This document shows positions 4,247 to 61,156 of a stretch of DNA of 64,000 nucleotides, in pieces. Under the pieces are notes generated by a model. The model was not told where the DNA came from. It worked only from the letters and a program-made list of their open reading frames with translations, and ran no database searches. Where the stretch lies: assembly GCF_017348835.2 (NCBI RefSeq), contig NZ_CP071375.1. The stretch is one strand, 5' to 3'. How positions within the stretch are numbered: the first letter of the stretch is position 1; each line of letters starts with the position of its first letter. The position numbers and the translations under genes were made by a program. Source of the stretch: Escherichia coli. GTDB taxonomy: Bacteria > Pseudomonadota > Gammaproteobacteria > Enterobacterales > Enterobacteriaceae.

Positions 4247-4252
4247 CAAGTA

Positions 4253-4287
4253 TTTGCTTGCCGGTTATTTTGCTTCCGGCAAGCAAA
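4253..4287. terminator. bidirectional stem-loop between convergent acnA and ribA (TTTGCTTGCCGG...CCGGCAAGCAAA)
   Basis: 12-bp inverted repeat with 11-nt loop between two convergent stops. Confidence 0.5.
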
Positions 4288-4309
4288 TGAATTACACAAT
4301 GCAAGAGGG

Positions 4310-9067: not shown

Positions 9068-9335
9068 AATACTCTCTCCTGAATTTATGATTCACGGAAG
9101 TAAGCTCTCTATAACTATAATAGCTAAGAATAAGCATGGTGAAATTATTCCGTGAAATCCGTTCGCGCGCAGGGTTATATCACGCAGGTGATAATGACTT
9201 CCTGTTATATCGCTGATAATAATTTTATATCTTAAGAGTGTTAATAACAGGTAAATAGTCTTAATTATCAACCAGGAATCATCTTAGAGCGGATGATTTG
9301 CCAAACTGCAAATCATCCGTAGAGAAGGGAAATGG

Positions 9336-10085
9336 TTAAATGTCAACGACGTGAACGGTGAGTTTACTGTGCTCAAGATGCATCAGATCGCTGGTGCGTA
9401 TTTTCGAATCGGTAATCACGCGATTGAATCGCTCAACGGGACCGATGGAGTATGAATGTACAGCACCAAATTTCGAGCTGTCAGTCAGGACTATCGCTTC
9501 GCACTCTTTTTCCAGCACGGCATTCACCACATCGGTACGCATCATATCGCGACCGGTGAATCCAGTTTCAGGTTGCCAGCCATCAATACCAATAAATGCT
9601 TTGCTGAAATGTACCTGTTGGATGCACTGGCGTGTCAACGGGCCAACCATACTTTCGCTTTTTTTCTGGTACACGCCACCGAGCAAAATAACTTCACAAG
9701 GCGCGTCTTTCAGCAAATGCGCGATGTAGCTGCTGACCGTGATGATAGTGACATTTTTCTTCTGCTCCCCCAGAGTCCGGGCGAGCAGGGCATTGCTGCT
9801 GCCATTTTCGATAAAGATGGTTTCGCCCGGTTGAACCAGTGACGCGGCAAACTCGGCGAGTTCACGCTTCAGCGTATAGTTGCTCATCATACGGGTTTCG
9901 ACGTCATCACTATCAAGCGAAACTGCAAAGCCATGTGCACGGCGGAGGTAACTCAGTTTTTCGAGGGTGTTGAGATCCTGGCGAATGGTAACTTCAGAAA
10001 CTCCAGTGGCTTTTGCCAGATCGGTTACGCTAACCTGACCCTGGTCAATGACCATCTGTAGAATAGTTTGTTGTCGGGAATTCAT
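9336..10085 (-). CDS. yciT: DeoR-family transcriptional regulator YciT (249 aa)
   Basis: N-terminal DeoR HTH, C-terminal sugar-phosphate-binding domain; synteny. Confidence 0.9.
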
Positions 10086-10174
10086 CGCTGTAATTCTTAT
10101 AACGTTATAATACTAAATAAAAAAATACTGACGCGCCGGGCATCCTCAAATAGGAAAACCTGAAGGCACGATTG

Positions 10175-10348
10175 TTAAATCTCCCACGGTGCCTTCGGGA
10201 TGTCTGGCGTAGATTCAGCAACCTGGCGCAAGAGTTCTGCTTTAAGTATCTCGAGATTATGGATCGCAGAGTGGTAATCGCCTGCCACAAGGATATCTAA
10301 CACAATATCAATACGTTCGGCAACGCGCTGGGCATCAAATTCAGACAT
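10175..10348 (-). CDS. yciZ: small protein YciZ (57 aa from MSEFDAQ start; ORF track extends to 10357)
   Basis: ORF track; remembered K-12 small gene between yciT and pdeR. Confidence 0.7.
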
Positions 10349-10495
10349 CAAGGACATCCTTATAGCAAAAGGGGGAAAATGAATAATGCAAAAATTGCCG
10401 CTAAAAGAGAAGTGTTTAACAGCAACGGCTAATTATCATCCGGGAATACGATATATAATGACGGAATATAGCGCTAAGTATATATATTCATCTAC

Positions 10496-12481
10496 TTATG
10501 CGCGCTTCAGATAGCGTTTATACCAGCGTTCGAAGGCGACGGCGGGCATCGGTTTGGCAAACAAAAATCCTTGCCGCTCATTGATCCCATTCTTGGTTAA
10601 AAAAGCATCTTCCTTTGCACTCTCTACACCTTCGGCGATCACCTGAAGATTCAATGCCTGGGCCACAGCGACGATTGCCCGAACCAGTGACTGCGAGACA
10701 GGTTGTTTGTGAATATCTCGAACAAAAACCTGGTCAAGTTTAATCGCATCGATCGGAAAGCGCGCCAGTTGCGAAAGTGAAGAGTAGCCGGTACCAAAAT
10801 CATCCAGATGCACTTGCGCACCTAATTGGCTAAATTGTTGAATAACAGACAGTGCCAGCACATCATTCTCAATCAGGCAGCTCTCCGTCAGTTCAACATC
10901 AATAGGGCAGTATTCAAAATTGAGTTCCTGGAGAACCTGTTTCAGGGAGGTGAAAATGGTTTGATCTGCGAGCTGACGTGCAGAAATATTTACCGCCACT
11001 CGCAGGTTAATACCTTTATCCCGCCACTTTGCCACCTGGCGTACGACATCGAGAATCACCCAACGGCCTAAAGGCACAATTAGCCCTGACTCTTCGGCGT
11101 AGGAAATGAAGTCCAACGGTGGAATCAACCCACGTTCAGGTGACTGCCAACGTACTAGTGCTTCCAGACTGCGCACTTCGCCACGCCAGGTGATTTTCGG
11201 TTGATAGTGAATAACCAACTGATCGTTTTCCAATGCTTTACGCAAGTTGGTATCCAGCCAGAGATATTCAAATACCCGCTGATTCATTTCTGGAGTAAAA
11301 ACGCAAAATTGTCCTCGTCCGCCTTCCTTCGCTGTGTACATTGCTGTGTCGGCGTGACGAATAATAGCCGCGCTGTCCGAACCATGTTCGGGAGAGAGTG
11401 AAATACCCACTGAACAGCTGGTATAAACTTCAATTAAACCAATACGAAAGGGGAGGCGTAAGCGGGTCAAAATTCGTGATGCCATTGCTTCCAGCGCGCT
11501 TTGTGAGGTATTGGATGCGAGTACCAGAAACTCATCGCCACCCGGACGCGCCAACACCTGGTCATGTTCGAGACAGCTTAAAATGGCCAATGACACGTCG
11601 CGTAATAACTGGTCACCAAATAAATGCCCATAGGCGTCGTTGACCTTTTTAAAATTATCCAAATCAAGATACACAACCCCAACTTTATTGTTATCTGCAT
11701 GATTAATAGCGTGATCGATTAACTCCTGCATTGCGTTACGATTCGGCAGTCCGGTGATACTGTCGGTATTTGCCAGAATACGCAGTCGCTCCTGAGCGCG
11801 GCGCTCTTCGGTAATGTCGGTGCCGGAACAGATTAAAAAAATCTCGTTTTTGCCACTGCCGCTGTGGACAAATTTATTGCGAAACAGAAACAGCCGCTGG
11901 CCTTTACGTGTTGGTATCCACAGTTCGACTTCATATGCATTGCCGCTTCGAAAAAATACACGGTTATTGCGCCTGGATGCCGCAGCTTCACGACGGCTCA
12001 TAAACAGTTTAAACACGCTTTGCCCAATGACGTCGTGTTCTTTCAACCCTGTGTAATCTTCACATAACCGATTGAAGCGCTGGATATTCCCCCGGCTGTC
12101 GAGAATGACTATTGCGGAATGTGCTTCAGAAACTACCTGCTCAGCAAAGGAAAGCCCGTGTGATAAATCACGAGCAACTGCCGGTGTGTCATGCCATGCA
12201 GACGCGTTGCCAGCCCATTCCCGTTTATTGATTTTTCGTCCTACCAGATGCACAGAAAGATCGCTCTCATCGACGGTCAGACTCATCATCAGGCTGGAGG
12301 TGATGACCGTCATTTCCCTGATGCGAGCAGCCTGTTCGGCAGATAACTGCAACGTACGTTCAGGTTCTGTGGTTTCGGTGGTAGAAAAGCGCAAAACATC
12401 GCTGCTTTCCGTCAACCGCCAGTATGGATTGTGCGATCCGAGAAAGTTGTACAACGTTGTGGACTCCCTAACGGTTTTCAT
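10496..12481 (-). CDS. pdeR: c-di-GMP phosphodiesterase PdeR (Gmr/YciR), PAS-GGDEF-EAL (661 aa)
   Basis: GGDEF motif (RPGGDEFLVL) and EAL motif (SLEALVRW) both present. Confidence 0.93.
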   Translation of the reverse strand: MKTVRESTTLYNFLGSHNPYWRLTESSDVLRFSTTETTEPERTLQLSAEQAARIREMTVITSSLMMSLTVDESDLSVHLVGRKINKREWAGNASAWHDTPAVARDLSHGLSFAEQVVSEAHSAIVILDSRGNIQRFNRLCEDYTGLKEHDVIGQSVFKLFMSRREAAASRRNNRVFFRSGNAYEVELWIPTRKGQRLFLFRNKFVHSGSGKNEIFLICSGTDITEERRAQERLRILANTDSITGLPNRNAMQELIDHAINHADNNKVGVVYLDLDNFKKVNDAYGHLFGDQLLRDVSLAILSCLEHDQVLARPGGDEFLVLASNTSQSALEAMASRILTRLRLPFRIGLIEVYTSCSVGISLSPEHGSDSAAIIRHADTAMYTAKEGGRGQFCVFTPEMNQRVFEYLWLDTNLRKALENDQLVIHYQPKITWRGEVRSLEALVRWQSPERGLIPPLDFISYAEESGLIVPLGRWVILDVVRQVAKWRDKGINLRVAVNISARQLADQTIFTSLKQVLQELNFEYCPIDVELTESCLIENDVLALSVIQQFSQLGAQVHLDDFGTGYSSLSQLARFPIDAIKLDQVFVRDIHKQPVSQSLVRAIVAVAQALNLQVIAEGVESAKEDAFLTKNGINERQGFLFAKPMPAVAFERWYKRYLKRA

Positions 12482-14718: not shown

Positions 14719-15846
14719 TTAATATGTCTCACCCAACGCGATTTTTAAGCGATTTATCCAGCCACACAGCCCGCTCCATACCAGCAGATTAATAATCTGC
14801 GTTGATGATTTTTCGTGTTCGAGTAAAGGGCTGAACTGGGCGGCGCTAAAGCGATCGGGTGCTCGGGTCAGCCATTGTATCGCCTGAACGGTAGCGCGCT
14901 CAACAGAATGACGGTCAGCCCATTGGTTAATTTCATTTTCGCCCTTGCGCATAAGGGTGCTGATTTTTTTATATTCATTTGATGAATCCATACAGGTGGC
15001 AAAACAAGCAGGACTGCCATTTATCCGCGCGCATAACAACGCCGCAAGCTGATTATCCGGCTGTGTATTAACCCGTGTGCTGTTTAACAACCTTTCGAGA
15101 AGGGAAAGTGAAATAGGGTGGAGAGAGAGTATTTCGGCCAGTTGGCAAAGTTCTGCAGTTGAACTTTTTGTGTGTTCTTCAGGTAGTTTTTCCACCTCAT
15201 AGCTGCTTCGCCAGCGTAATGATTCATCAGCAAACAGTGACGCGTCGGCGTAGTTTTGTATCTCCAGCCCGGGTAACCAGCGTACCGGATGCCCGAGATA
15301 AGCCTGAAATGTCGCAATTGTCCGCGCCTGAAAGCCAATAAAACCAATGATTTGGTTAATGATCACACAGTCCCAGGCAGTAAGACCGACGTCATTCAGA
15401 TGCTGGCGCGATCGGTTGTCGATAATAGAAGGCGAGCTAGCCAGTTGGCGGGCATATTGCGTGATTTGTGCCAACCGATGATTACTTTCCCTGGTGGAAT
15501 CAGGCCCGGGGAGCGGCGTAAGTCGCGCCGAATAGTAGTTACATAACCGCTGGACGCCGCAAACCTGAGCAACCGTCAGGGCCGTCGACAAGCGTTCATA
15601 AGCGGTGAAGGTCTGTGAACGGGTCACGGTAAGCTGGTCAGGGAACAAATCCACTGCAAGAACACGCGCAGGGTCCAGCCATGAAAGGAAGGGGGCCAGC
15701 GTTTCTTTTTCAAGGATCACGTCGAGTAGAAAGGGATCGCTGACCTTTGCGGCTTCCGGGACCAGAGGCAGAACGTCATACTCCGTAGTACTGGATTGCG
15801 TTTCATGATACCACTGGCTTTTGCCGGTGATGTGGCGTTGTTCCAT
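14719..15846 (-). CDS. yciW: YciW, CMD (carboxymuconolactone decarboxylase)-like protein (375 aa from MEQRHITG start; ORF track extends to 15924)
   Basis: ORF track; synteny between rnb and fabI. Confidence 0.82.
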
Positions 15847-15951
15847 GGGCGCTCCTTGGTCGTAAAGGAAATCGTTATCCTGACGCAAGGCGGGAAGGGG
15901 AGAAAGACGGATCGGCGATAACAAATATCAGAAAGGTATAACAGAGATAAC

Positions 15952-15970
15952 GGGCGGCAGAACGCCGCCC
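15952..15970 (-). terminator. stem-loop downstream of fabI (GGGCGGC-AGAAC-GCCGCCC)
   Basis: 7-bp GC-rich inverted repeat about 20 nt after fabI stop. Confidence 0.4.
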
Positions 15971-15989
15971 ATCTTTACCAACAGAACGA

Positions 15990-16778
15990 TTATTTCAGTT
16001 CGAGTTCGTTCATTGCAGCAATGCTGAAACCGCCGTCAACGTGGACCACTTCACCGGAGATACCGGCAGAGAGATCGGAGCACAGGAATGCCGCAGAGTT
16101 ACCCACATCTTCAATAGTAACGGTACGGCGAATCGGGGTAACGGCTTCGCAATGAGCCAGCATTTTGCGGAAGTCTTTGATGCCGGAGGCCGCCAGAGTA
16201 CGGATCGGACCAGCAGAGATGGCGTTAACACGCACACCTTCCGGACCCATCGCGTTCGCCATATAGCGCACGTTCGCTTCCAGAGACGCTTTTGCCAGAC
16301 CCATAACGTTGTAGTTCGGGATAGCGCGCTCAGCGCCAAGGTAGGAAAGGGTCAGCAGGGCAGAACCCGGATTCAGCATGGAGCGGCAAGCTTTTGCCAT
16401 TGCAACGAAGCTGTAGGAGCTGATGTCGTGGGCGATTTTGAAGCCTTCACGAGTAACGGCGTTAACATAGTCACCATCCAGTTGATCGCCAGGTGCAAAA
16501 CCAATAGAGTGTACGAAACCGTCAAATTTCGGCCAAACTTTCCCCAGTTCAGCGAACATGGTGTCGATGCTGGCATCTTCGGCAACATCGCACTGCAGAA
16601 CGATGTCAGAACCCAATTGAGCGGCAAATTCTTCTACGCGGCCTTTCAGTTTGTCGTTCTGGTAGGTGAATGCCAGTTCAGCTCCTTCGCGGTGCATCGC
16701 CTGAGCGATACCGTAGGCGATGGACAGTTTGCTGGCAACACCGGTTACCAGAATGCGCTTACCGGAAAGAAAACCCAT
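15990..16778 (-). CDS. fabI: enoyl-ACP reductase (NADH) FabI (262 aa)
   Basis: SDR-type NAD-binding motif [13 protein letters not shown]; FabI sequence recognised. Confidence 0.97.
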
Positions 16779-17212
16779 AGCTTTAATCCTTATTGTTGAT
16801 GCTTGTTGTGCCTGAAAATCAGGCGATTCGTCGTTTTAGTAAACAGTACGAACAGATAAACGGTTATTATAATCAACCTGGCTGTGGGTGGCTATAGTTG
16901 CGCTTTCTGTACCGGAGAGAAGCTGCGGTACAGAGCATTTTGCGTTATCTACTCTTGACGCCTGCAAGGGGTAGGTTGGGGAAATATCTTATAGAATCTG
17001 ACTATGAAACTATTCGTATTAGCTCCGATAAGTTTGATGATGAAAACAGAACTGGCGACAACAAGTAGCTGCCTTTCTGATGAATTTACCCCAACTTAAT
17101 ATTGTCAACTATCTTCACAGAATCTCCACAATCTCTTCATTATCAGAATATGCACCATGAATAAGTTAAAAATACTTTCCATTACTTTGGAGAAACGTAT
17201 AATCAGCAAAAA

Positions 17213-17230
17213 TGAGAACGATCATTCTCA
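17213..17230. promoter_or_regulatory. perfect palindrome TGAGAA-N6-TTCTCA about 25 nt upstream of the TetR start; candidate TetR-family operator
   Basis: 6-bp perfect inverted repeat arms; TATAAT-like hexamer at 17198-17203 just upstream. Confidence 0.35.
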
Positions 17231-17255
17231 CCAAGTGATAGGCCAGGAGACAGAA

Positions 17256-17822
17256 ATGACCAGCAAGCTGGAGATACGCCACAAACAGCGTCAGGATGAA
17301 ATCATTAACGCCGCCCGTCGGTGTTTTCGTCGCTGCGGGTTTCATGCCGCCAGTATGTCGCAAATTGCCAGCGAAGCTCAGCTTAGCGTGGGTCAGATAT
17401 ATCGTTACTTCGCCAACAAAGACGCCATTATTGAAGAGATGGTTCGCCGTATCATCGACTTTCGTATTGCCCAAATGGACATTGACGCGCGTACCGATCA
17501 CTTCCCGGAAGTCCTTGCCTTGCGTAAATCCTTAAATGAGGACGACGACGCGCTGATGCTGGAAGTGGCTGCAGAAGCCACACGCAACCCGCGGGTTATG
17601 GCAATGCTTGAAGAAGCTGACGCCAGAATGTTCGCTAACGGTTGTGCACATATGAAAAGAATGCATCCCCATCTTAGCGACGAGCACATTCGTTGCTGCG
17701 TTGAAGTGTTTGCTACCATGATGGAAGGTACGGTTTATCGTCGTTTAACACCGCAAAAAAGCGATCCACAACATCTGCAGGAATTATATCAGGATATTGT
17801 TAGTATGTTGATAAATAAATAA
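17256..17822 (+). CDS. TetR/AcrR-family transcriptional regulator (188 aa from MTSK start; ORF track starts at 17157)
   Basis: N-terminal TetR HTH (SMSQIASEAQLSVGQIYRYFANKDAI); AGGAG RBS 8 nt upstream of 17256. Confidence 0.85.
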   Translation: MTSKLEIRHKQRQDEIINAARRCFRRCGFHAASMSQIASEAQLSVGQIYRYFANKDAIIEEMVRRIIDFRIAQMDIDARTDHFPEVLALRKSLNEDDDALMLEVAAEATRNPRVMAMLEEADARMFANGCAHMKRMHPHLSDEHIRCCVEVFATMMEGTVYRRLTPQKSDPQHLQELYQDIVSMLINK

Positions 17823-17842
17823 GAACAGAATTAACCAATAGC

Positions 17843-17866
17843 GGGGGATATTAATCCCCCTTATTT
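17843..17866 (+). terminator. stem-loop after TetR gene (GGGGGAT-ATTA-ATCCCCC + TTATTT)
   Basis: 7-bp GC-rich inverted repeat followed by T-rich run, 20 nt after TetR stop. Confidence 0.45.
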
Positions 17867-17923
17867 CATTGCGAAATTCATTTCGCGATGCGGGTTCGTT
17901 ATAACTGAATATCCCTGACATAT

Positions 17924-17960
17924 CCTCATTAATTTTAATGAGGAGGGTATTTCTCACCCT
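17924..17960. promoter_or_regulatory. two adjacent inverted repeats (CCTCATTAA-TT-TTAATGAGG; AGGGT-N7-ACCCT) directly upstream of the efflux operon RBS; candidate operator or promoter
   Basis: 9-bp perfect palindrome plus a second 5-bp inverted repeat within 50 nt of the MFP start. Confidence 0.35.
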
Positions 17961-17970
17961 GGAGAAAATA

Positions 17971-19092
17971 ATGAAGTATATAGCAACATCTGTAGTGGCA
18001 ATGCTGCTCTTATCTGGTTGTGATAATACGCAAAGTAACAATTCATCCCCGTCAGAAACAGAAGTCGGCGTTGTTACAGTCAAATCTCAACCGGTCTCGG
18101 TAGTCAGTGAATTAACCGGACGCACCAGTGCTGCGCTCAGTGCCGAAGTACGTCCGCAGGTTGGGGGAATTATCCAGAAACGCTTATTTAAGGAAGGTGA
18201 TCTGGTCAAGGCTGGACAGCCGCTCTACCAGATTGATGCGGCCAGTTATCAGGCTGCATGGAATGAAGCTCGGGCAGCATTACAACAAGCACAGGCACTG
18301 GTAAAAGCCGATTGCCAGAAAGCGCAGCGTTATGCCCGACTGGTGAAAGAGAACGGTGTTTCACAACAGGATGCTGATGATGCTCAGTCTACCTGTGCAC
18401 AAGATAAAGCCAGTGTAGAGGCGAAAAAAGCCGCACTGGAAACTGCGCGCATTAATCTTGACTGGACCACGGTAACCGCACCGATTTCAGGGCGCATTGG
18501 CATTTCGTCGGTAACCCCTGGCGCACTGGTGACCGCGTCGCAAGATACAGCGTTAACGACTATTCGTGGTCTGGATACAATGTATGTCGACCTCACTCGC
18601 TCCAGTGTCGATTTATTACGTCTGCGTAAACAGTCACTGGCGACCAACAGTGACACCATGAGCGTCTCACTTATTCTGGAAGATGGCACAACCTACAGCG
18701 AAAAAGGGCGTCTGGAACTCACCGAAGTCGCTGTAGATGAGTCTACCGGTTCGGTGACATTACGGGCGATTTTCCCCAATCCACAACAGCAGTTATTACC
18801 GGGAATGTTTGTTCGCGCTCGTGTCGATGAAGGCGTGATGGAAGACGCTATTCTCGCGCCGCAACAGGGCGTCACGCGCGATGCTAAAGGCAATGCAACT
18901 GCGCTGGTGGTGAATAAAGACAATAAAGTAGAGCAGCGAACGCTCGAAACGGGAGAAACATATGGTGATAAATGGCTGGTGCTAAACGGCCTGCACAACG
19001 GCGACCGACTGATTGTTGAAGGTTCTGCAAAAGTCACTTCAGGGCAGACGGTCAAGGCTGTTGAAGTTCAGGCTAATGGAGGCAACGCCTGA
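17971..19092 (+). CDS. RND efflux periplasmic adaptor (membrane fusion lipoprotein), AcrA/MexA-like (373 aa from MKYIATS start)
   Basis: lipoprotein signal with lipobox LLSGC; coiled-coil and beta-barrel MFP architecture; GGAG RBS. Confidence 0.9.
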   Translation: MKYIATSVVAMLLLSGCDNTQSNNSSPSETEVGVVTVKSQPVSVVSELTGRTSAALSAEVRPQVGGIIQKRLFKEGDLVKAGQPLYQIDAASYQAAWNEARAALQQAQALVKADCQKAQRYARLVKENGVSQQDADDAQSTCAQDKASVEAKKAALETARINLDWTTVTAPISGRIGISSVTPGALVTASQDTALTTIRGLDTMYVDLTRSSVDLLRLRKQSLATNSDTMSVSLILEDGTTYSEKGRLELTEVAVDESTGSVTLRAIFPNPQQQLLPGMFVRARVDEGVMEDAILAPQQGVTRDAKGNATALVVNKDNKVEQRTLETGETYGDKWLVLNGLHNGDRLIVEGSAKVTSGQTVKAVEVQANGGNA

Positions 19093-22000
19093 TGTTTTCG
19101 CGCTTTTTTGTTCGCCGCCCGGTCTTTGCCTGGGTTATCGCCATTTTGATTATGTTGGCGGGGATTCTGGCTATTCGCACATTGCCCGTCGCGCAATATC
19201 CTGACGTTGCGCCACCGACCATTAAAATTTCAGCCACTTATACTGGTGCTTCTGCCGAAACGCTGGAGAACAGCGTGACTCAGGTTATCGAGCAACAACT
19301 CACTGGGCTTGATAATTTACTCTATTTCAGCTCAACCAGCAGCTCTGATGGTTCGGTCAGTATTAATGTGACCTTTGAACAAGGTACCGATCCAGATACT
19401 GCACAGGTTCAGGTGCAGAATAAAATTCAGCAGGCCGAGTCGCGCCTACCCAGCGAAGTGCAGCAAACGGGTGTTACGGTGGAGAAATCACAAAGCAACT
19501 TTTTGCTGATTGCTGCCGTGTATGACACCACTGACAAAGCCTCCAGTTCGGATATCGCCGACTGGTTGGTTAGTAACGTTCAGGACCCGCTGGCGCGTGT
19601 TGAAGGTGTGGGGAGTCTGCAAGTCTTTGGCGCGGAATACGCTATGCGCATCTGGCTTGACCCGGCCAAACTGGCGTCTTATTCGCTAATGCCTTCAGAC
19701 GTGCAAAGTGCTATTGAAGCGCAAAACGTGCAGGTTACTGCCGGGAAAATAGGGGCATTGCCTTCACCGAATACTCAGCAACTGACCGCAACGGTACGTG
19801 CGCAGTCTCGCTTGCAGACGGTGGATCAGTTCAAAAATATTATCGTGAAAAGCCAGTCAGACGGCGCAGTTGTTCGTATAAAAGATGTGGCTCGTGTTGA
19901 GATGGGCAGTGAAGATTATACCGCTATCGGCAAACTTAACGGTCACCCGTCTGCCGGGGTTGCTGTAATGCTTTCGCCCGGTGCGAATGCGCTGAATACG
20001 GCGACGCTGGTCAAGGATAAGATTGCCGAATTCCAGCGGAACATGCCGCAGGGATACGACATCGCTTACCCGAAAGACAGCACTGAATTTATTAAAATCT
20101 CTGTAGAGGACGTAATTCAGACGCTGTTTGAAGCCATCGTATTGGTGGTTTGCGTGATGTATTTATTCCTGCAAAACCTGCGTGCCACACTGATTCCGGC
20201 GTTAGCTGTCCCCGTCGTTTTGCTGGGCACATTCGGCGTTCTTGCGTTGTTTGGCTATTCGATTAATACCCTGACGTTGTTTGCAATGGTGCTGGCGATC
20301 GGCTTGCTGGTGGACGATGCCATTGTGGTAGTGGAGAACGTCGAACGCATTATGCGTGACGAAGGGTTGCCCGCGCGTGAAGCCACGGAAAAATCAATGG
20401 GCGAGATTTCTGGCGCACTGGTTGCCATTGCGCTGGTGTTGTCAGCCGTATTCCTGCCTATGGCCTTCTTTGGGGGATCTACGGGGGTAATTTATCGTCA
20501 GTTTTCGATAACCATTATCTCCGCAATGCTGCTTTCCGTGGTGGTGGCATTGACCTTGACTCCCGCCCTGTGCGGTTCCGTCCTCCAGCATGTTCCGCCA
20601 CATAAAAAAGGCTTTTTCGGCGCATTTAACCGCTTTTACCGCCGTACTGAAGATAAATATCAGCGAGGCGTAATTTATGTCCTGCGCCGTGCTGCTCGAA
20701 CGATGGGGCTTTATCTCGTACTGGGTGGTGGAATGGCCCTGATGATGTGGAAACTGCCGGGCAGTTTCTTACCCACTGAAGACCAGGGCGAAATCATGGT
20801 GCAGTACACGCTGCCGGCCGGGGCGACCGCTGCCCGTACAGCAGAAGTGAATCGCCAGATTGTTGACTGGTTCCTGATTAACGAGAAAGCAAATACCGAT
20901 GTCATTTTTACCGTTGATGGTTTCAGTTTTAGCGGCAGCGGACAGAACACCGGGATGGCGTTTGTTTCGTTGAAAAACTGGTCTCAACGTAAAGGGGCAG
21001 AAAACACCGCCCAGGCTATCGCCCTACGGGCAACCAAAGAGCTGGGCACAATTCGTGATGCCACGGTATTTGCGATGACGCCGCCAGCCGTTGATGGGCT
21101 GGGGCAAAGCAATGGTTTTACGTTTGAATTGTTAGCTAACGGTGGAACCGATCGCGAAACACTACTGCAAATGCGTAATCAGTTGATAGAAAAAGCGAAT
21201 CAAAGTCCGGAGTTACATTCTGTTCGTGCCAATGATTTGCCACAAATGCCGCAATTGCAGGTAGATATTGATAGTAATAAAGCGGTGTCATTAGGGTTGA
21301 GTTTGAATGATGTCACCGACACCCTGTCCAGTGCGTGGGGCGGTACTTATGTGAATGACTTTATTGACCGTGGTCGTGTGAAAAAAGTCTACATTCAGGG
21401 CGACAGTGAATTTCGTTCCGCGCCGTCAGACTTAGGTAAATGGTTTGTGCGCGGTAGCGATAACGCCATGACACCATTCTCTGCTTTTGCGACCACCCGC
21501 TGGCTGTATGGACCGGAAAGACTGGTGCGCTACAACGGTTCTGCAGCCTATGAAATTCAGGGGGAAAATGCGACTGGCTTTAGTTCCGGCGATGCAATGA
21601 CAAAAATGGAGGAACTGGCAAACAGTCTTCCTGCGGGAACAACCTGGGCCTGGAGTGGTTTGTCATTGCAGGAGAAACTGGCCAGCGGTCAGGCATTGAG
21701 TCTGTATGCAGTTTCTATTCTGGTGGTTTTCCTCTGCCTTGCAGCACTGTACGAAAGCTGGTCAGTCCCGTTCTCGGTCATTCTGGTGATCCCTCTGGGG
21801 CTTCTTGGCGCGGCGCTGGCGGCCTGGATGCGTGATTTAAACAACGATGTTTACTTCCAGGTGGCGCTATTAACCACTATCGGCTTGTCGTCGAAAAACG
21901 CCATTCTGATTGTGGAATTTGCTGAAGCGGCGGTTGCAGAGGGCTATTCCTTGAGTCGTGCGGCATTACGCGCGGCGCAGACTCGTTTACGCCCAATCAT

Positions 22001-22199
22001 TATGACCTCGCTGGCGTTTATTGCGGGGGTAATGCCGCTGGCGATAGCAACCGGCGCAGGGGCGAACAGCCGCATCGCCATTGGTACGGGCATTATTGGC
22101 GGTACGCTGACCGCTACGTTGCTGGCTATTTTCTTTGTTCCTCTGTTTTTTGTACTGGTGAAACGTTTGTTTGCCGGTAAACCGCGCCGTCAGGAGTAA
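19092..22199 (+). CDS. RND (HAE1 family) inner-membrane multidrug efflux pump, AcrB/MexB-like (1035 aa)
   Basis: 12-TM RND architecture, characteristic N-terminus (MFSRFFVRRPVFAWVIAILIML); start overlaps MFP stop (ATGA). Confidence 0.93.
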   Translation: MFSRFFVRRPVFAWVIAILIMLAGILAIRTLPVAQYPDVAPPTIKISATYTGASAETLENSVTQVIEQQLTGLDNLLYFSSTSSSDGSVSINVTFEQGTDPDTAQVQVQNKIQQAESRLPSEVQQTGVTVEKSQSNFLLIAAVYDTTDKASSSDIADWLVSNVQDPLARVEGVGSLQVFGAEYAMRIWLDPAKLASYSLMPSDVQSAIEAQNVQVTAGKIGALPSPNTQQLTATVRAQSRLQTVDQFKNIIVKSQSDGAVVRIKDVARVEMGSEDYTAIGKLNGHPSAGVAVMLSPGANALNTATLVKDKIAEFQRNMPQGYDIAYPKDSTEFIKISVEDVIQTLFEAIVLVVCVMYLFLQNLRATLIPALAVPVVLLGTFGVLALFGYSINTLTLFAMVLAIGLLVDDAIVVVENVERIMRDEGLPAREATEKSMGEISGALVAIALVLSAVFLPMAFFGGSTGVIYRQFSITIISAMLLSVVVALTLTPALCGSVLQHVPPHKKGFFGAFNRFYRRTEDKYQRGVIYVLRRAARTMGLYLVLGGGMALMMWKLPGSFLPTEDQGEIMVQYTLPAGATAARTAEVNRQIVDWFLINEKANTDVIFTVDGFSFSGSGQNTGMAFVSLKNWSQRKGAENTAQAIALRATKELGTIRDATVFAMTPPAVDGLGQSNGFTFELLANGGTDRETLLQMRNQLIEKANQSPELHSVRANDLPQMPQLQVDIDSNKAVSLGLSLNDVTDTLSSAWGGTYVNDFIDRGRVKKVYIQGDSEFRSAPSDLGKWFVRGSDNAMTPFSAFATTRWLYGPERLVRYNGSAAYEIQGENATGFSSGDAMTKMEELANSLPAGTTWAWSGLSLQEKLASGQALSLYAVSILVVFLCLAALYESWSVPFSVILVIPLGLLGAALAAWMRDLNNDVYFQVALLTTIGLSSKNAILIVEFAEAAVAEGYSLSRAALRAAQTRLRPIIMTSLAFIAGVMPLAIATGAGANSRIAIGTGIIGGTLTATLLAIFFVPLFFVLVKRLFAGKPRRQE

Positions 22200-22202
22200 G
22201 TT

Positions 22203-23576
22203 ATGTTGCGTCGTTCTCTTATTTTTCTGGTGCTGTTGAGTGCGGGATGTGTCTCGCTCGATCCCCACTACAGCACGCCTGAATCCCCAATCCCGGCGAC
22301 CTTGCCGGGAGCACAGGGCCAGGGAAAGGCAATCAGCCATGACTGGCAGCAGGTGATCCACGATCCCCGATTGCAGCAAGTGGTGACTATTGCACTGAAC
22401 AGTAACCGCGATGTGCAAAAAGCGATTGCTGATATTGACTCAGCACGGGCGCTCTATGGGCAAACTAATGCGTCGTTATTCCCGACGGTGAATGCGGCCT
22501 TAAGTTCAACCCGCAGTCGTTCGCTGGCGAATGGTACGGAAACCACTGCCGAGGCTGACGGCACGGTGTCCAGTTTTACGTTAGATCTGTTTGGTCGTAA
22601 TCAGAGTTTATCTCGGGCGGCGCGAGAAACCTGGCTTGCCAGTGAATTTACAGCCCAGAACACCCGTTTAACGCTGATTGCTGAAATCAGCACCGCCTGG
22701 CTGACACTGGCGGCCGATAACAGCAACCTGGCCCTGGCAAAAGAAACGATGACCAGTGCAGAAAACTCATTGAAAATTATCCAGCGCCAGCAACAGGTTG
22801 GCACGGCGGCAGCGACAGATGTCAGTGAGGCGATGAGTGTTTATCAGCAAGCGCGCGCCAGCGTTGCCAGCTATCAGACACAAGTGATGCAGGATAAAAA
22901 TGCGCTGAACTTACTGGCAGGTACAACGCTTGAGGAAAATTTGCTACCGGGAACACTGGAAAGCCTGCCGGAACAGATGATAAGTCTGGTTCCTGCGGGA
23001 GTGTCATCTGACGTTCTGCTGCGTCGCCCGGATATCCAGGAAGCGGAACATAATTTGAAGAGCGCCAATGCCGATATTGGCGCGGCGCGGGCTAACTTTT
23101 TCCCGACGATTTCGCTGACTGCCAGCGCTGGTGTTGGCAGTGACGCATTGTCGTCGTTGTTCAGCCACGGAATGCAGATCTGGTCATTTACGCCATCGGT
23201 CACATTACCGCTGTTCACTGGCGGAAGTAATCTGGCGCAGCTTCGTTACGCAGAAGCACAAAAGCGTGGACTCATTGCCACCTATGAAAAAACCGTTCAG
23301 AGCGCATTTAAAGATGTCGCTAACGCACTGGCGCGGCGGACCACGCTTGAAGAGCAACTGGATGCACAGCGCCAGTATGTTAAAGCTGAGCAACAAACGG
23401 TCGATGTTGGCTTGCGTCGCTATCAGACGGGTGTTGGTGATTACCTGACCGTGTTGACGGCGCAGCGCAGCTTGTGGAGCGCACAGCAGGAGCTGCTGGC
23501 ACTGCAACTGACTGATTTTACAAACCGAATCACGCTCTGGCAGTCGCTGGGCGGCGGCATGTCATCACTCAAGTAA
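22203..23576 (+). CDS. outer-membrane efflux lipoprotein, OprM/NodT-family OMF (457 aa)
   Basis: lipobox LSAGC; OMF family repeats; 3 nt after RND stop. Confidence 0.9.
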   Translation: MLRRSLIFLVLLSAGCVSLDPHYSTPESPIPATLPGAQGQGKAISHDWQQVIHDPRLQQVVTIALNSNRDVQKAIADIDSARALYGQTNASLFPTVNAALSSTRSRSLANGTETTAEADGTVSSFTLDLFGRNQSLSRAARETWLASEFTAQNTRLTLIAEISTAWLTLAADNSNLALAKETMTSAENSLKIIQRQQQVGTAAATDVSEAMSVYQQARASVASYQTQVMQDKNALNLLAGTTLEENLLPGTLESLPEQMISLVPAGVSSDVLLRRPDIQEAEHNLKSANADIGAARANFFPTISLTASAGVGSDALSSLFSHGMQIWSFTPSVTLPLFTGGSNLAQLRYAEAQKRGLIATYEKTVQSAFKDVANALARRTTLEEQLDAQRQYVKAEQQTVDVGLRRYQTGVGDYLTVLTAQRSLWSAQQELLALQLTDFTNRITLWQSLGGGMSSLK

Positions 23577-23584
23577 GGAATAAT

Positions 23585-24748
23585 ATGGCTAGAGTCTCTC
23601 TTTCATGGGCATTGATTCTTGGTCTTTTAGCCGGTATCGGCCCGATGTGTACCGATCTTTATTTGCCGGCTTTGCCGGAGATGTCTGAGCAACTGGCGGC
23701 AACCACGACCATAACGCAATTAACGCTGACTGCATCACTGATCGGTCTTGGCGTCGGACAACTGTTATTTGGCCCTCTGAGCGACAAAATAGGGCGTAAA
23801 CGTCCGTTAATCTTGTCGTTGCTATTGTTTATTGTTTCTTCCATTTTGTGCGCGACAACGAACAATATTTACTGGCTGGTGATCTGGCGTTTTATTCAAG
23901 GGATCGCGGGGGCGGGTGGTTCGGTGCTCTCTCGTTCTATTGCTCGTGACAAATATCAGGGAGTAACGTTGACCCAGTTTTTTGCGCTGTTAATGACGGT
24001 GAATGGCCTGGCACCGGTGTTGTCGCCAGTGCTGGGCGGGTACATTGTTAGCACTTTTGACTGGCGCACTTTATTCTGGGTAATGGCTGAAATTAGCACC
24101 GTATTGTTGCTGGGCTGCGTGTTATTTATTAATGAGACCTTGCCAGAAAATAAAAGGGGCTCATCATTGCTATTAACCGGACGAAGCGTGGTGCAGAACC
24201 GCCGTTTTATGCGCTTTTGCCTGATTCAAAGTTTTATGCTGGCAGGTTTGTTTGCGTATATCGGCTCTTCGTCGTTCGTGTTGCAGAAGGAATTTGGCTT
24301 TAGTCCAATGCAATTTAGCCTGGTGTTTGGCCTTAACGGCATCGGACTTATCATTGCTTCATGGATCTTTTCGCGTCTGGCGCGACGGATTAATGCGATG
24401 ACATTGTTGCGAGGTGGCCTGATAGCGGCAATTTTGTGTGCATTGCTCACGGTCTTATGCGCATGGACACAATTGCCCATTCCGGCACTGGTGGCATTAT
24501 TTTTCACTATTGCATTTTGTAGCGGCATCGGCACTGTTGGCGGGGCAGAGGCTATGAGTGCAGTAGGGACGCAGGAATCTGGAACGGCGTCTGCGTTGAT
24601 GGGGATGAGCATGTTTGTCTTCGGCGGTATAGCCGCGCCATTGTCGGGATTTGGCGGAGAAACACTGTTAAAAATGAGTCTGGCAATTACGGTGTGTTAT
24701 ACACTGGCATTCCTGGTTGCTCTCACCAGAATCGACAATCAAAAGTAA
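23585..24748 (+). CDS. MFS transporter, Bcr/CflA drug-resistance subfamily (387 aa)
   Basis: 12-TM MFS with motif GPLSDKIGRKRP; AAGGA RBS; 8 nt after OMF stop. Confidence 0.88.
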   Translation: MARVSLSWALILGLLAGIGPMCTDLYLPALPEMSEQLAATTTITQLTLTASLIGLGVGQLLFGPLSDKIGRKRPLILSLLLFIVSSILCATTNNIYWLVIWRFIQGIAGAGGSVLSRSIARDKYQGVTLTQFFALLMTVNGLAPVLSPVLGGYIVSTFDWRTLFWVMAEISTVLLLGCVLFINETLPENKRGSSLLLTGRSVVQNRRFMRFCLIQSFMLAGLFAYIGSSSFVLQKEFGFSPMQFSLVFGLNGIGLIIASWIFSRLARRINAMTLLRGGLIAAILCALLTVLCAWTQLPIPALVALFFTIAFCSGIGTVGGAEAMSAVGTQESGTASALMGMSMFVFGGIAAPLSGFGGETLLKMSLAITVCYTLAFLVALTRIDNQK

Positions 24749-24752
24749 TGAA

Positions 24753-24789
24753 TACCTCATCCTGAGGGGGGGGCCCTGTCAGGATGAGG
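24753..24789. terminator. stem-loop between convergent MFS gene and sapF (ACCTCATCCTGA...TCAGGATGAGGT)
   Basis: 12-bp perfect inverted repeat with G-rich 13-nt loop in a 50-bp gap between two convergent stops. Confidence 0.5.
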
Positions 24790-24798
24790 TGCAGAACA

Positions 24799-25605
24799 CT
24801 AACGGTCCTTACGCCACGCATCCGCCGTCAATGCTTCGCCAAAGTGCCCGGCAATCAGCCGTTTGGTGAGTTCATGCAGCGGTGATGCCAGCACATCCGC
24901 GGTGCTGCCTCGCTCGACAACCTCGCCCTGATGCATCACCAGCACCTGGTCGCTAATGTGCTTCATCATTCCGATATGCTGGGTAACATAAATATACGAA
25001 ATGCCCTGTTTTTCCTGTAATTCCAGCATCAGATTAATCAACTGCGAACGCATCGACATATCCAGTGAAGCGAGGGCTTCATCGGCAATAATGACTTTTG
25101 GGCGCAATATCAGCGCGCGCGCCAGACCCAGACGCTGTTTTTGCCCGGGGGCCAACATATGCGGATAGTAACTGACGTGATCCGGTAGCAGCCCAACCAT
25201 ACGCATCGTTTCAATAATCTGTTTGCGACGCTGTTCCGGTTCCAGGTTGGTGTTCAGGCGCAGTGGAAAATCCAGAATTTGCGAGATACGTTGACGGGGA
25301 TTCAACGAGGTCGAAGGATCCTGAAAAATCATGCGAATACGCTGACTGCGGAAGGAATAATCGCCAAAATGCAGTGGATGATCGTCAATCAATAACTCGC
25401 CGCTGGTAGGTTCTATCATTCCCGCCAGCATTTTTGCCAGCGTGGATTTACCCGAACCATTCTCGCCGATAATCGCCAGTGTCTGGCCTTCACGTAGCGT
25501 AAAGCTCAAGGGTTTTACCGCTTCTACGGTTTGACGACGAAACCAGCCGGTCCGGTAGCGGAACGTTTTACTTAAATTACGCACTTCAAGCAGCGTTTCG
25601 ATCAT
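24799..25605 (-). CDS. sapF: peptide ABC transporter ATP-binding protein SapF (268 aa)
   Basis: Walker A GENGSGKST, ABC signature; sap operon synteny. Confidence 0.95.
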   Translation of the reverse strand: MIETLLEVRNLSKTFRYRTGWFRRQTVEAVKPLSFTLREGQTLAIIGENGSGKSTLAKMLAGMIEPTSGELLIDDHPLHFGDYSFRSQRIRMIFQDPSTSLNPRQRISQILDFPLRLNTNLEPEQRRKQIIETMRMVGLLPDHVSYYPHMLAPGQKQRLGLARALILRPKVIIADEALASLDMSMRSQLINLMLELQEKQGISYIYVTQHIGMMKHISDQVLVMHQGEVVERGSTADVLASPLHELTKRLIAGHFGEALTADAWRKDR

Positions 25606-25606
25606 C

Positions 25607-26599
25607 TCACTCTTTCTCCATGTTCAGCGGGAAATGACAGGCATAGAGATGATTTTTCGCCCCCGTCAAACGTGGCGTCACAATGCATTCTCGTTGTGCA
25701 TACGGGCAACGTGGCCCCAGACGACAACCAATCGGTAACTGTTCCAGCAGTGGGATAGCGCCAGGCAGCGTATTGAGGCGACTTTTATGCGGCATCGCGC
25801 TGCCGAAGTCTGGTATCGCGCGGATCAGCGCCTGGGTATAAGGATGATGTGGCATCGTCACCAACTCCTTACTTGGCGCGGTTTCCACCGTTTGACCGCA
25901 GTAAAGCACGTTAATTTTATCCGCCCATTGGCTAAGCATTTGTAAGTCATGGCTGATAAGCAAAATAGTGGTATTGCTGTTTTGGTTGAGACGCGTCAAC
26001 AGGCGAAAGATTTGCGCCTGGGTTGTTGGCTCCATTGAGTTTGTCGGTTCGTCAGCAATCAGCAGACGCGGTTGATTCGCCAGTGCAATGGCTATCATCA
26101 CTTTCTGACATTCACCTTCGGTCAACTCATAGGGAAAACTGCGCATCGCATCTTTGTGATCTTTAATCCCCACGCGGTGCAGCAGTTCAATGGCACGGCG
26201 TTTGCGCCAGCCAAAACGCTGCCACCAACGGCCTTTATAGGTCCAGGCTGGGATGTTTTGCATCAACTGGCGATCCACACGTTCTGAAGGATCAAGACAC
26301 GACTGCGGTTCCTGGAAAATCATCGACACGTTGTGACCAACCAGCTTGCGCCGTTCGCGTGCGGAGAGACGCAGCAAATCGATATCATCAAAACGCATAC
26401 GGTCTGCAGTAACACGCCAGTTATCTTTATTCACCCCACAAATCGCTTTCGCAATCAAACTCTTGCCGGAACCGGATTCGCCAACAAGACCGCGGATTTC
26501 ACCTTCGGTTAAGGTCATACTTACCCGGTCAACGGCTTTAACCCACTCATCCCCGGTTTTAAATTCAATAGTCAGGTTACGAATATCGAGTAATGGCAT
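25607..26599 (-). CDS. sapD: peptide ABC transporter ATP-binding protein SapD (330 aa)
   Basis: Walker A GESGSGKS; start overlaps sapC stop. Confidence 0.95.
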
Positions 26600-30185: not shown

Positions 30186-30216
30186 GTTGAACAGATGGCG
30201 TCGCCATCTGTTCAAC
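30186..30216. repeat. 31-bp perfect palindrome (GTTGAACAGATGGCG-T-CGCCATCTGTTCAAC) in the ymjA-sapA intergenic region
   Basis: 15-bp perfect inverted repeat arms with a single central base; about 105 bp upstream of sapA start. Confidence 0.6.
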
Positions 30217-61121: not shown

Positions 61122-61156
61122 AATATGCCTGATGGTGCAACACCATCAGGCATATT
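61122..61156. terminator. bidirectional stem-loop between convergent tyrR and tpx (AATATGCCTGATGGTG-CAA-CACCATCAGGCATATT)
   Basis: 16-bp perfect inverted repeat with 3-nt loop. Confidence 0.6.

Follow-up and report, generated by a model that had tools for sequence, protein, structure and literature searches.

A probable 3'-end stem-loop of sapABCDF beside a replaceable cargo slot between sapF and the fabI promoter in Escherichia coli

In the stretch of Escherichia coli DNA analyzed here (64 kb in total, hereafter the window), the gene of a Bcr/CflA-type MFS pump and sapF converge on each other, and the short gap between their stop codons holds a perfect inverted repeat. The question raised by this locus is which of the neighboring genes this repeat belongs to, and whether it acts in the RNA of one transcript, in the RNA of both, or on the DNA itself. 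A preliminary description of the window took it for a likely bidirectional terminator at the edge of a rearranged gene cluster. The reading favored here, to which we give a probability of about 0.72, is that the hairpin is the 3'-end stem-loop of sapABCDF, kept beside a replaceable cargo slot that lies between sapF and the fabI promoter. The left block of the locus, on the minus strand, comprises in order rnb, yciW, and fabI (15990-16778). Five plus-strand genes ensue, assigned by NCBIfam and Pfam, in this order, to a TetR regulator, an RND adaptor, an RND permease, an outer-membrane factor, and the MFS pump, all with intact ORFs. Right of the MFS gene come sapF (24799-25605, minus strand) and then sapDCBA. 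The 9.8 kb around the hairpin are 100% identical to E. coli PE164, in which the PGAP annotation carries the eef genes without pseudogene flags, and 99.6% identical to O157:H7 genomes, which we take to be ST11. The features to which the text refers are the following.

15990-16778, minus strand: fabI, the conserved left flank (NF005938, 595.5 bits)
16866-16894, minus strand: predicted fabI sigma-70 promoter (TAGCCA, 17 nt, TATAAT; consensus scan only)
16904-16932, no strand: left junction zone (identity with K-12 clean to 16903, patchy to ~16932, none beyond)
17256-17822, plus strand: eefR, TetR-family regulator (Pfam TetR_N, 57.5 bits; start according to PGAP, the longest ORF starting at 17157)
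17971-19092, plus strand: eefA, periplasmic adaptor (TIGR01730, 275.6 bits; start according to PGAP, the longest ORF starting at 17938)
19092-22199, plus strand: eefB, RND permease (TIGR00915, 1553 bits)
22203-23576, plus strand: eefC, outer-membrane factor (TIGR01845, 371 bits)
23585-24748, plus strand: eefD, Bcr/CflA-type MFS efflux transporter, convergent with sapF (TIGR00710, 278.8 bits; PGAP; name from PMC12817139)
24738-24753, minus strand: sapF-sense tail past the stem, moderately U-rich (AUUCAUUACUUUUGAU; 4 U in the first 9 nt, score 1.48)
24754-24790, minus strand: hairpin, read as the 3' stem-loop of the sapABCDF transcript (12-bp perfect arms, 13-nt partly self-pairing loop)
24799-25605, minus strand: sapF, final gene of sapABCDF (NCBIfam NF011692, 588 bits for a cut-off of 452; sapF in the PE164 annotation)

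With eefD running to 24748, stop codon included, and the stop codon of sapF at 24799-24801 on the minus strand, the gap measures 50 bp (24749-24798), as the preliminary description had reported. The two arms, ACCTCATCCTGA at 24754-24765 and TCAGGATGAGGT at 24779-24790, form a perfect 12-bp inverted repeat; it had been recognized as such, and only its position needs correction, from 24753-24789 to 24754-24790, one base to the right. The 13-nt loop, GGGGGGGGCCCTG, pairs further with itself, giving an extended stem of 17 nt at 88%, and on the plus strand the hairpin begins 5 nt past the eefD stop. The predicted RNA folding energy amounts to -31.5 kcal/mol on the plus strand (z -4.2) and to -29.2 kcal/mol on the minus strand (z -4.7, 71-nt context), and to -24.5 for the hairpin alone. 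The exact two-arm pattern occurs once in the window for a chance expectation of 0.00. Perfect 12-bp hairpins with loops of 3-20 nt are found at 5 sites in the 64-kb window versus 0.1 expected from first-order Markov resamples, so that the sapF hairpin is non-random, yet one of a recurring class of gene-end hairpins. An Rfam scan of 16700-25000 (E <= 1) returns no match at the hairpin, its single match being a sub-threshold Burkholderia sRNA inside eefA.

Three further perfect hairpins of at least 12 bp are present in the window, at 4252-4288, 9290-9319, and 61122-61156. Separately, the sapA leader contains a perfect 14-bp hairpin, GTTGAACAGATGGC-GTC-GCCATCTGTTCAAC (30186-30216), the K-12 counterpart of which corresponds to a 5' UTR 3' terminus near 1357206 (PMC10687069, Supplementary Data 3), and the sap operon may accordingly be subject to premature termination or attenuation. 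Within the eef cluster, the segment 17843-17860 (GGGGGATATTAATCCCCC, T-rich on the plus strand), directly past the eefR stop, is returned as terminator-like on both strands by a scan; this element suggests that eefR and eefABCD may be transcribed as separate units.

What lies to the left of the hairpin is a known variable segment. In K-12 MG1655, the order is fabI, ycjD, sapF, all on one strand, the gene order being that of the preliminary description, whereas the window carries eefRABCD between fabI and sapF and is devoid of ycjD, as it had also claimed: tblastn of K-12 YcjD against the whole 64-kb window reports a best match with E = 9.3. The replacement of ycjD by eefRABCD is an already known polymorphism. 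Phylogroups B2, D, E, F, and G have been reported to carry the eefRABCD genes in the fabI-sapF interval (Microb Genom 2026;12:001593, PMC12817139; preprint 10.1101/2024.08.01.606150), the eef-positive STs including ST11 of phylogroup E, and ycjD at the same locus in phylogroups A, B1, and C as well as in ST69 and ST182 (PMC12817139). E. albertii and E. marmotae also carry eef (PMC12817139). The window, which stems from an eef-positive E. coli lineage, matches this published polymorphism in gene content, gene order, fabI-sapF location, and ycjD absence. In contrast, the publication gives no account of a DNA hairpin, of exact breakpoints, or of a third allele, the word "hairpin" there referring to protein features only (PMC12817139). 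Our own counts are consistent with this distribution: among 5426 complete E. coli genomes, the eef allele is found in 2037 (at least 80% of the 9.8-kb query covered at 95% identity or more) and the ycjD allele in 3346 (at least 80% of the K-12 ycjD interval covered). The "rearrangement" of the preliminary description is thus correct insofar as ycjD is replaced, but is better termed a stable two-allele cargo replacement, and as such it had already been published (PMC12817139).

Comparison with K-12 locates both ends of the replaced segment. Blastn of K-12 against the window reports homology at 15739-16928 and 24792-25970, with 98.5% identity. Inspection by eye and MAFFT alignment indicate that the left break is clean to 16903 and fuzzy to ~16932. 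On the right, both hairpin arms are common to K-12 and the window, and the real break is therefore at 24753, the left foot of the hairpin. The breakpoints anticipated near 16.8-17.2 kb and 24.75-24.8 kb are accordingly found at ~16904-16932 and 24753, and the hairpin does stand at the cluster boundary. The segment between the breaks measures ~7.8 kb in the window versus ~0.57 kb in K-12, where it consists of ycjD and GC-rich repeats. No direct or inverted repeats are found at the junctions, including the short direct repeats for which a comparison with K-12 had been proposed, and a search for such repeats flanking the island gave only short chance matches. The fabI-sapF interval encodes no integrase or transposase, and the G+C content of the island (43-54%) is similar to that of the flanks, the composition profile displaying no foreign-DNA signature. 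These results do not support a mobile element or an integrative island. The predicted fabI promoter lies just inside the conserved left flank, and its sequence is kept in the eef and ycjD alleles. A second hairpin, CTGTACCG-GAGAGAAGCTG-CGGTACAG, sits exactly on the left junction (16908-16935), just upstream of this promoter; its predicted energy is about -20 kcal/mol in a 51-nt context, with z of about -3 on both strands, and it is partly conserved in K-12.

The spacers of eef-negative genomes have been said to align to "operon fragments" of eefRABCD (PMC12817139). However, local alignment of the K-12 segment (locus L001, 5193-5758) with the island (16933-24753) yields a best score of 15 versus 14.4 +/- 1.3 for shuffled sequences. 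Since this is no better than the shuffled controls, the K-12 spacer is rejected as an eef remnant: ycjD, which displays no detectable homology to eefRABCD, is a replacement and not the leftover of a simple deletion, and this refines the published loss scenario. Regarding the order of events, E. albertii and two other genomes, Escherichia sp. MOD1 and SCPM-O-B-8794 (deposited as E. coli), carry eef at the same site together with the same hairpin, from which parsimony suggests that eef is old in the genus and that ycjD would be a later arrival, as PMC12817139 argues likewise. The K-12 ycjD segment itself contains a 71-nt internal repeat with 79% identity (L001 5291-5359 and 5396-5465), which looks like the 3' fragment of a second DUF559 copy. 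Each of the 71-nt copies is followed by a GC-rich repeat, CCCTCTCCCC...GGGGCGAGGGG (near L001 5190-5240 and 5395-5425), and this repeat recurs elsewhere in E. coli genomes, with a median of 4 places per genome for the query concerned. The GC-rich repeats flanking K-12 ycjD resemble the boxC type.

The hairpin is not confined to the eef island. In K-12, a hairpin, CACCTCATTCTGAC-AAGATTTAATCTTTT-GTCAGAATGAGGTG, follows sapF at the same position as that of the window. Its arms, ACCTCATTCTGA and TCAGAATGAGGT, as compared with ACCTCATCCTGA and TCAGGATGAGGT, differ by one compensatory pair, T-A in K-12 and C-G in the window. Three other features separate the two forms: the apex is AAAAGAUUAAAUCUUG in K-12 and a C/G run in the window; the distance from the sapF stop to the stem is 20 nt longer in K-12; and the tail past the stem is A-rich in K-12, where it is the 5' end of ycjD, whereas it is moderately U-rich in the window, where it is antisense to the 3' end of eefD. 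Two further ycjD-allele genomes exhibit the K-12 form. Among eight eef-allele E. coli (the window and loci L003-L009), the core arms are invariant, L009 having a single substitution at the outermost pair. The loops of these eight vary, with G6 to G8, C2 to C4, and TT; the loop of the window (24766-24778) is a G-run/C-run, and O157:H7 has a TT insertion in the apex. Only 6 of 2043 genomes match the 56-bp junction of the window at 99% or more. Slippage, palindrome instability, or homopolymer assembly errors may cause this apex variation.

A scan with SapF, one genome per species, extends the comparison to the best 80 Enterobacteriaceae loci (L013-L092, sapF at ~10001-10804), a set in which Salmonella and E. 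fergusonii are not included and E. ruysiae possibly stands under another deposited name. Only 3 of these 80 loci carry eef, those of MOD1, SCPM-O-B-8794, and E. albertii, in each case between sapF and fabI. In all three the hairpin comes directly after sapF with the core CATYCTGAC / GTCAGRATG, and the apex differs from one to the other but is self-complementary in each. The T-A or C-G variant of the arms is not tied to the cargo, as the SCPM genome combines eef with T-A. Altogether, 14 Escherichia loci contain the hairpin motif, each of them once and invariably where sapF ends. The 77 other Enterobacteriaceae loci among the best 80 lack it, so its absence outside Escherichia applies to the genera sampled. 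It is a single-copy motif in 2039 E. coli genomes, and no extra copies are found elsewhere in the ~1.6 Mb of loci searched. Because the same arms follow sapF in K-12 and in other Escherichia, sequence comparison assigns the hairpin to the sap operon and not to the eef island.

The alignment of 11 hairpin sequences points in the same direction at the level of base pairing. In this alignment, 88.6% of the cells pair, versus 31-50% with slid partners; three pairs change on both sides, and pair 39-65, which is never broken, reads CG in 7 of the sequences and UA in 4. Two G-U pairs are valid solely in the sapF-sense RNA. The covariation appears modest, being drawn from few and closely related sequences. 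The single copy also separates the hairpin from the REP/BIME and boxC-type repeats, with which it shares the character of an extragenic palindrome at a gene end: it is confined to the sapF 3' end, and one copy per genome in the 2039 genomes, one per locus, and one in the window lead us to reject a dispersed-repeat (REP/BIME-like) reading. The presence of the same arms in K-12-type genomes without eefR likewise bears on the idea of a palindromic protein-binding operator, for instance for EefR itself. Palindromes are indeed the targets of TetR-family regulators and the cluster encodes one, but the repeat sits where two genes end, remote from all promoters of the cluster, and its spacer length ranges from 10 to 17 nt, unlike an operator. 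We reject the EefR operator, the arms being found where eefR is not, and an operator of this kind deserves hardly any credence.

The assignment of the hairpin to the 3' end of the sap transcript receives experimental support from K-12. The TRS method reports a "Primary" sapF 3' terminus on the minus strand, with a peak at 1351745-1351756 and a dominant position at 1351749 (Nat Commun 2023, PMC10687069, Supplementary Data 3), and with adjusted p-values of ~1e-8 to 1e-11 across three libraries. The fold tabulated for this terminus, at -23.5 kcal/mol, is exactly the sapF hairpin (PMC10687069). With the K-12 coordinate offset derived from the table sequences as compared with locus L001 and from the thrL row of the same table (PMC10687069), the last paired U of the K-12 stem falls at 1351759, and the RNA end is hence ~10 nt beyond the stem. 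The portions available of two Term-seq supplements, Adams et al. 2021 (PMC7815308) and TERMITe (PMC12207403), yielded no sapF or ycjD terminus. By analogy with K-12, the hairpin would form the sap operon 3' end in the eef allele as well.

How this end arises depends on the sequence that follows the stem on each strand. In the sapF sense, a stable G+C-containing stem-loop is present right after the gene, with its 12-bp perfect stem and inner pairs. The ensuing tail, AUUCAUUACUUUU, contains 4 U in its first 9 nt and corresponds, over 24738-24753, to the antisense of the last eefD codons and of the eefD stop codon. Its score, in the weighting scheme of d'Aubenton Carafa, is 1.48, as compared with 1.20 for the fabI terminator of the same window and 3.8-4.8 for the canonical post-sapF terminators of other genera, a range that leaves out the control terminators L016 and L032 because their spans cut into the U-tracts and their scores are underestimated. 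These canonical terminators, hairpin and U-tract, occupy the same post-sapF position in other genera among the best 80 loci. The first 9 nt contain only 2 U in K-12 and 1 in E. albertii. With a U-tract that is weak here and absent in K-12 and E. albertii, there is reason to doubt classical intrinsic termination, and the end could just as well be a processed or protected one; in other words, intrinsic termination and protection of a trimmed end stand on a par as the mode of sap 3'-end formation.

On the opposite strand, the eefD-sense tail (GCAGAACAC; GCAGAACACUAACGG as read on the plus strand) is free of U over its first 9 nt and scores 0.01, and the U-tract that a bidirectional terminator calls for is lacking. 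This result bears directly on the proposal that one hairpin stops both eefD on the plus strand and sapF on the minus strand. In E. coli, convergent genes commonly have a bidirectional terminator between them, as known from SEnd-seq work, and the arrangement is suggestive: a single strong hairpin occupies the 50 bp that separate the two genes, and an A-rich stretch precedes the stem on the plus strand as the mirror image of the sapF-sense tail. However, the terminator scan calls the full hairpin on neither strand and makes no plus-strand call at the site, and the hairpin is older than the convergence of the two genes, or at any rate does not depend on it, as K-12 ycjD is co-oriented with sapF and the K-12 plus-strand tail, with 3 U in the first 9 nt but none consecutive, has no U-tract. 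Because the eefD-sense strand is devoid of a U-tract, the sequence does not support a bidirectional intrinsic terminator, and we regard such a terminator as unlikely. The earlier proposal of bidirectional termination thus finds backing in its sapF half, through the K-12 3' end ~10 nt past the stem and the moderately U-rich tail, and not in its eefD half. Under the sap 3'-end reading, the stem could still cap the eefD mRNA after termination further downstream, a role that we infer, together with that of the sap end, for the eef allele.

The coincidence of the homology break with the foot of the palindrome raises another possibility, that of a DNA-level element: the palindrome would be a hotspot of recombination or breakage, or would behave like an attachment site, and would in this way drive the exchange of cargo in the slot. 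The apex is hypervariable and the foot conserved, as expected of unstable long palindromes, and the cargo of the slot is unrelated from case to case, both in E. coli (eef, ycjD, SMI1/KNR4) and across the Enterobacteriaceae. The SMI1/KNR4 cargo is that of a third E. coli allele, found in strain N3 (NZ_CP031609.1; locus L012, 5371-6003), in which a gene encoding a 210-residue SMI1/KNR4 (SUKH-1) protein stands in place of eefRABCD and ycjD alike. The stop codon of this gene overlaps that of sapF, and the breakpoints are the sapF stop codon and a position 22 bp upstream of the fabI start. This allele has no hairpin at all, which makes the hairpin dispensable. Throughout the best 80 SapF loci, sapF neighbors fabI in the same orientation, and the spacer between the two genes ranges from ~28 bp in Kluyvera and ~125 bp in many genera up to more than 9 kb, with unrelated contents. 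Other RND pumps occupy it in Enterobacter chuandaensis (L033) and Huaxiibacter (L061); these are 46-47% identical to EefB and are encoded on the sapF strand. The sapF-fabI slot therefore looks like a family-wide cargo hotspot. Yet, the other genera among the best 80 loci display the same hotspot without the palindrome, N3 swapped its cargo with breakpoints elsewhere, no integrase, transposase, or junction repeat accompanies the exchange, and the G-U pairs are allowed only in sapF-sense RNA. Selection for the sapF 3' element explains the boundary equally well. A DNA-level element is, on this balance, very improbable. A combined reading would have an Enterobacteriaceae-wide slot that takes eefRABCD, DUF559/ycjD, SMI1/KNR4, or RND pumps without mobile machinery, and an Escherichia palindrome with a conserved foot and a hypervariable self-complementary apex that serves both as a terminator and as the physical break or recombination point setting the right edge of the exchange; we hold it to be quite unlikely.

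The reading of the hairpin as the sapABCDF 3' stem-loop would then work as follows. In the sapF-sense RNA, a long stem would form and define the end of the transcript, whether through intrinsic termination, through a block to 3' exonucleases after downstream termination, or through both. The slot between sapF and the fabI promoter accommodates eefRABCD (7.8 kb) here and ycjD with GC-rich repeats (~0.57 kb) in K-12, its right edge being the foot of the sapF hairpin and its left edge the fabI promoter. As the hairpin belongs to the sap operon, it would be retained whatever cargo follows. Rho-independent terminators and the 3' protective stem-loops of Rho-terminated transcripts both resemble this structure, in that a stable stem follows the last gene of the operon and the RNA end mapped in K-12 lies a few nt past it. 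The sapF stem differs from both in being unusually long (12-17 bp) and poor in its U-tract, and it therefore fits neither class cleanly.

The hairpin would thus be an ordinary transcript-end structure that borders a presence/absence polymorphism already in the literature, and its importance hardly goes beyond annotation. At least one further E. coli allele, that with SMI1/KNR4, occupies the slot, which is variable across the family. In the window, the variable segment is bounded exactly by elements of core genes, the predicted fabI promoter on one side and the sapF 3' hairpin on the other. Most simply, selection would preserve the regulatory ends of both core transcription units, and the cargo between them would be swapped by homologous recombination in the flanks.
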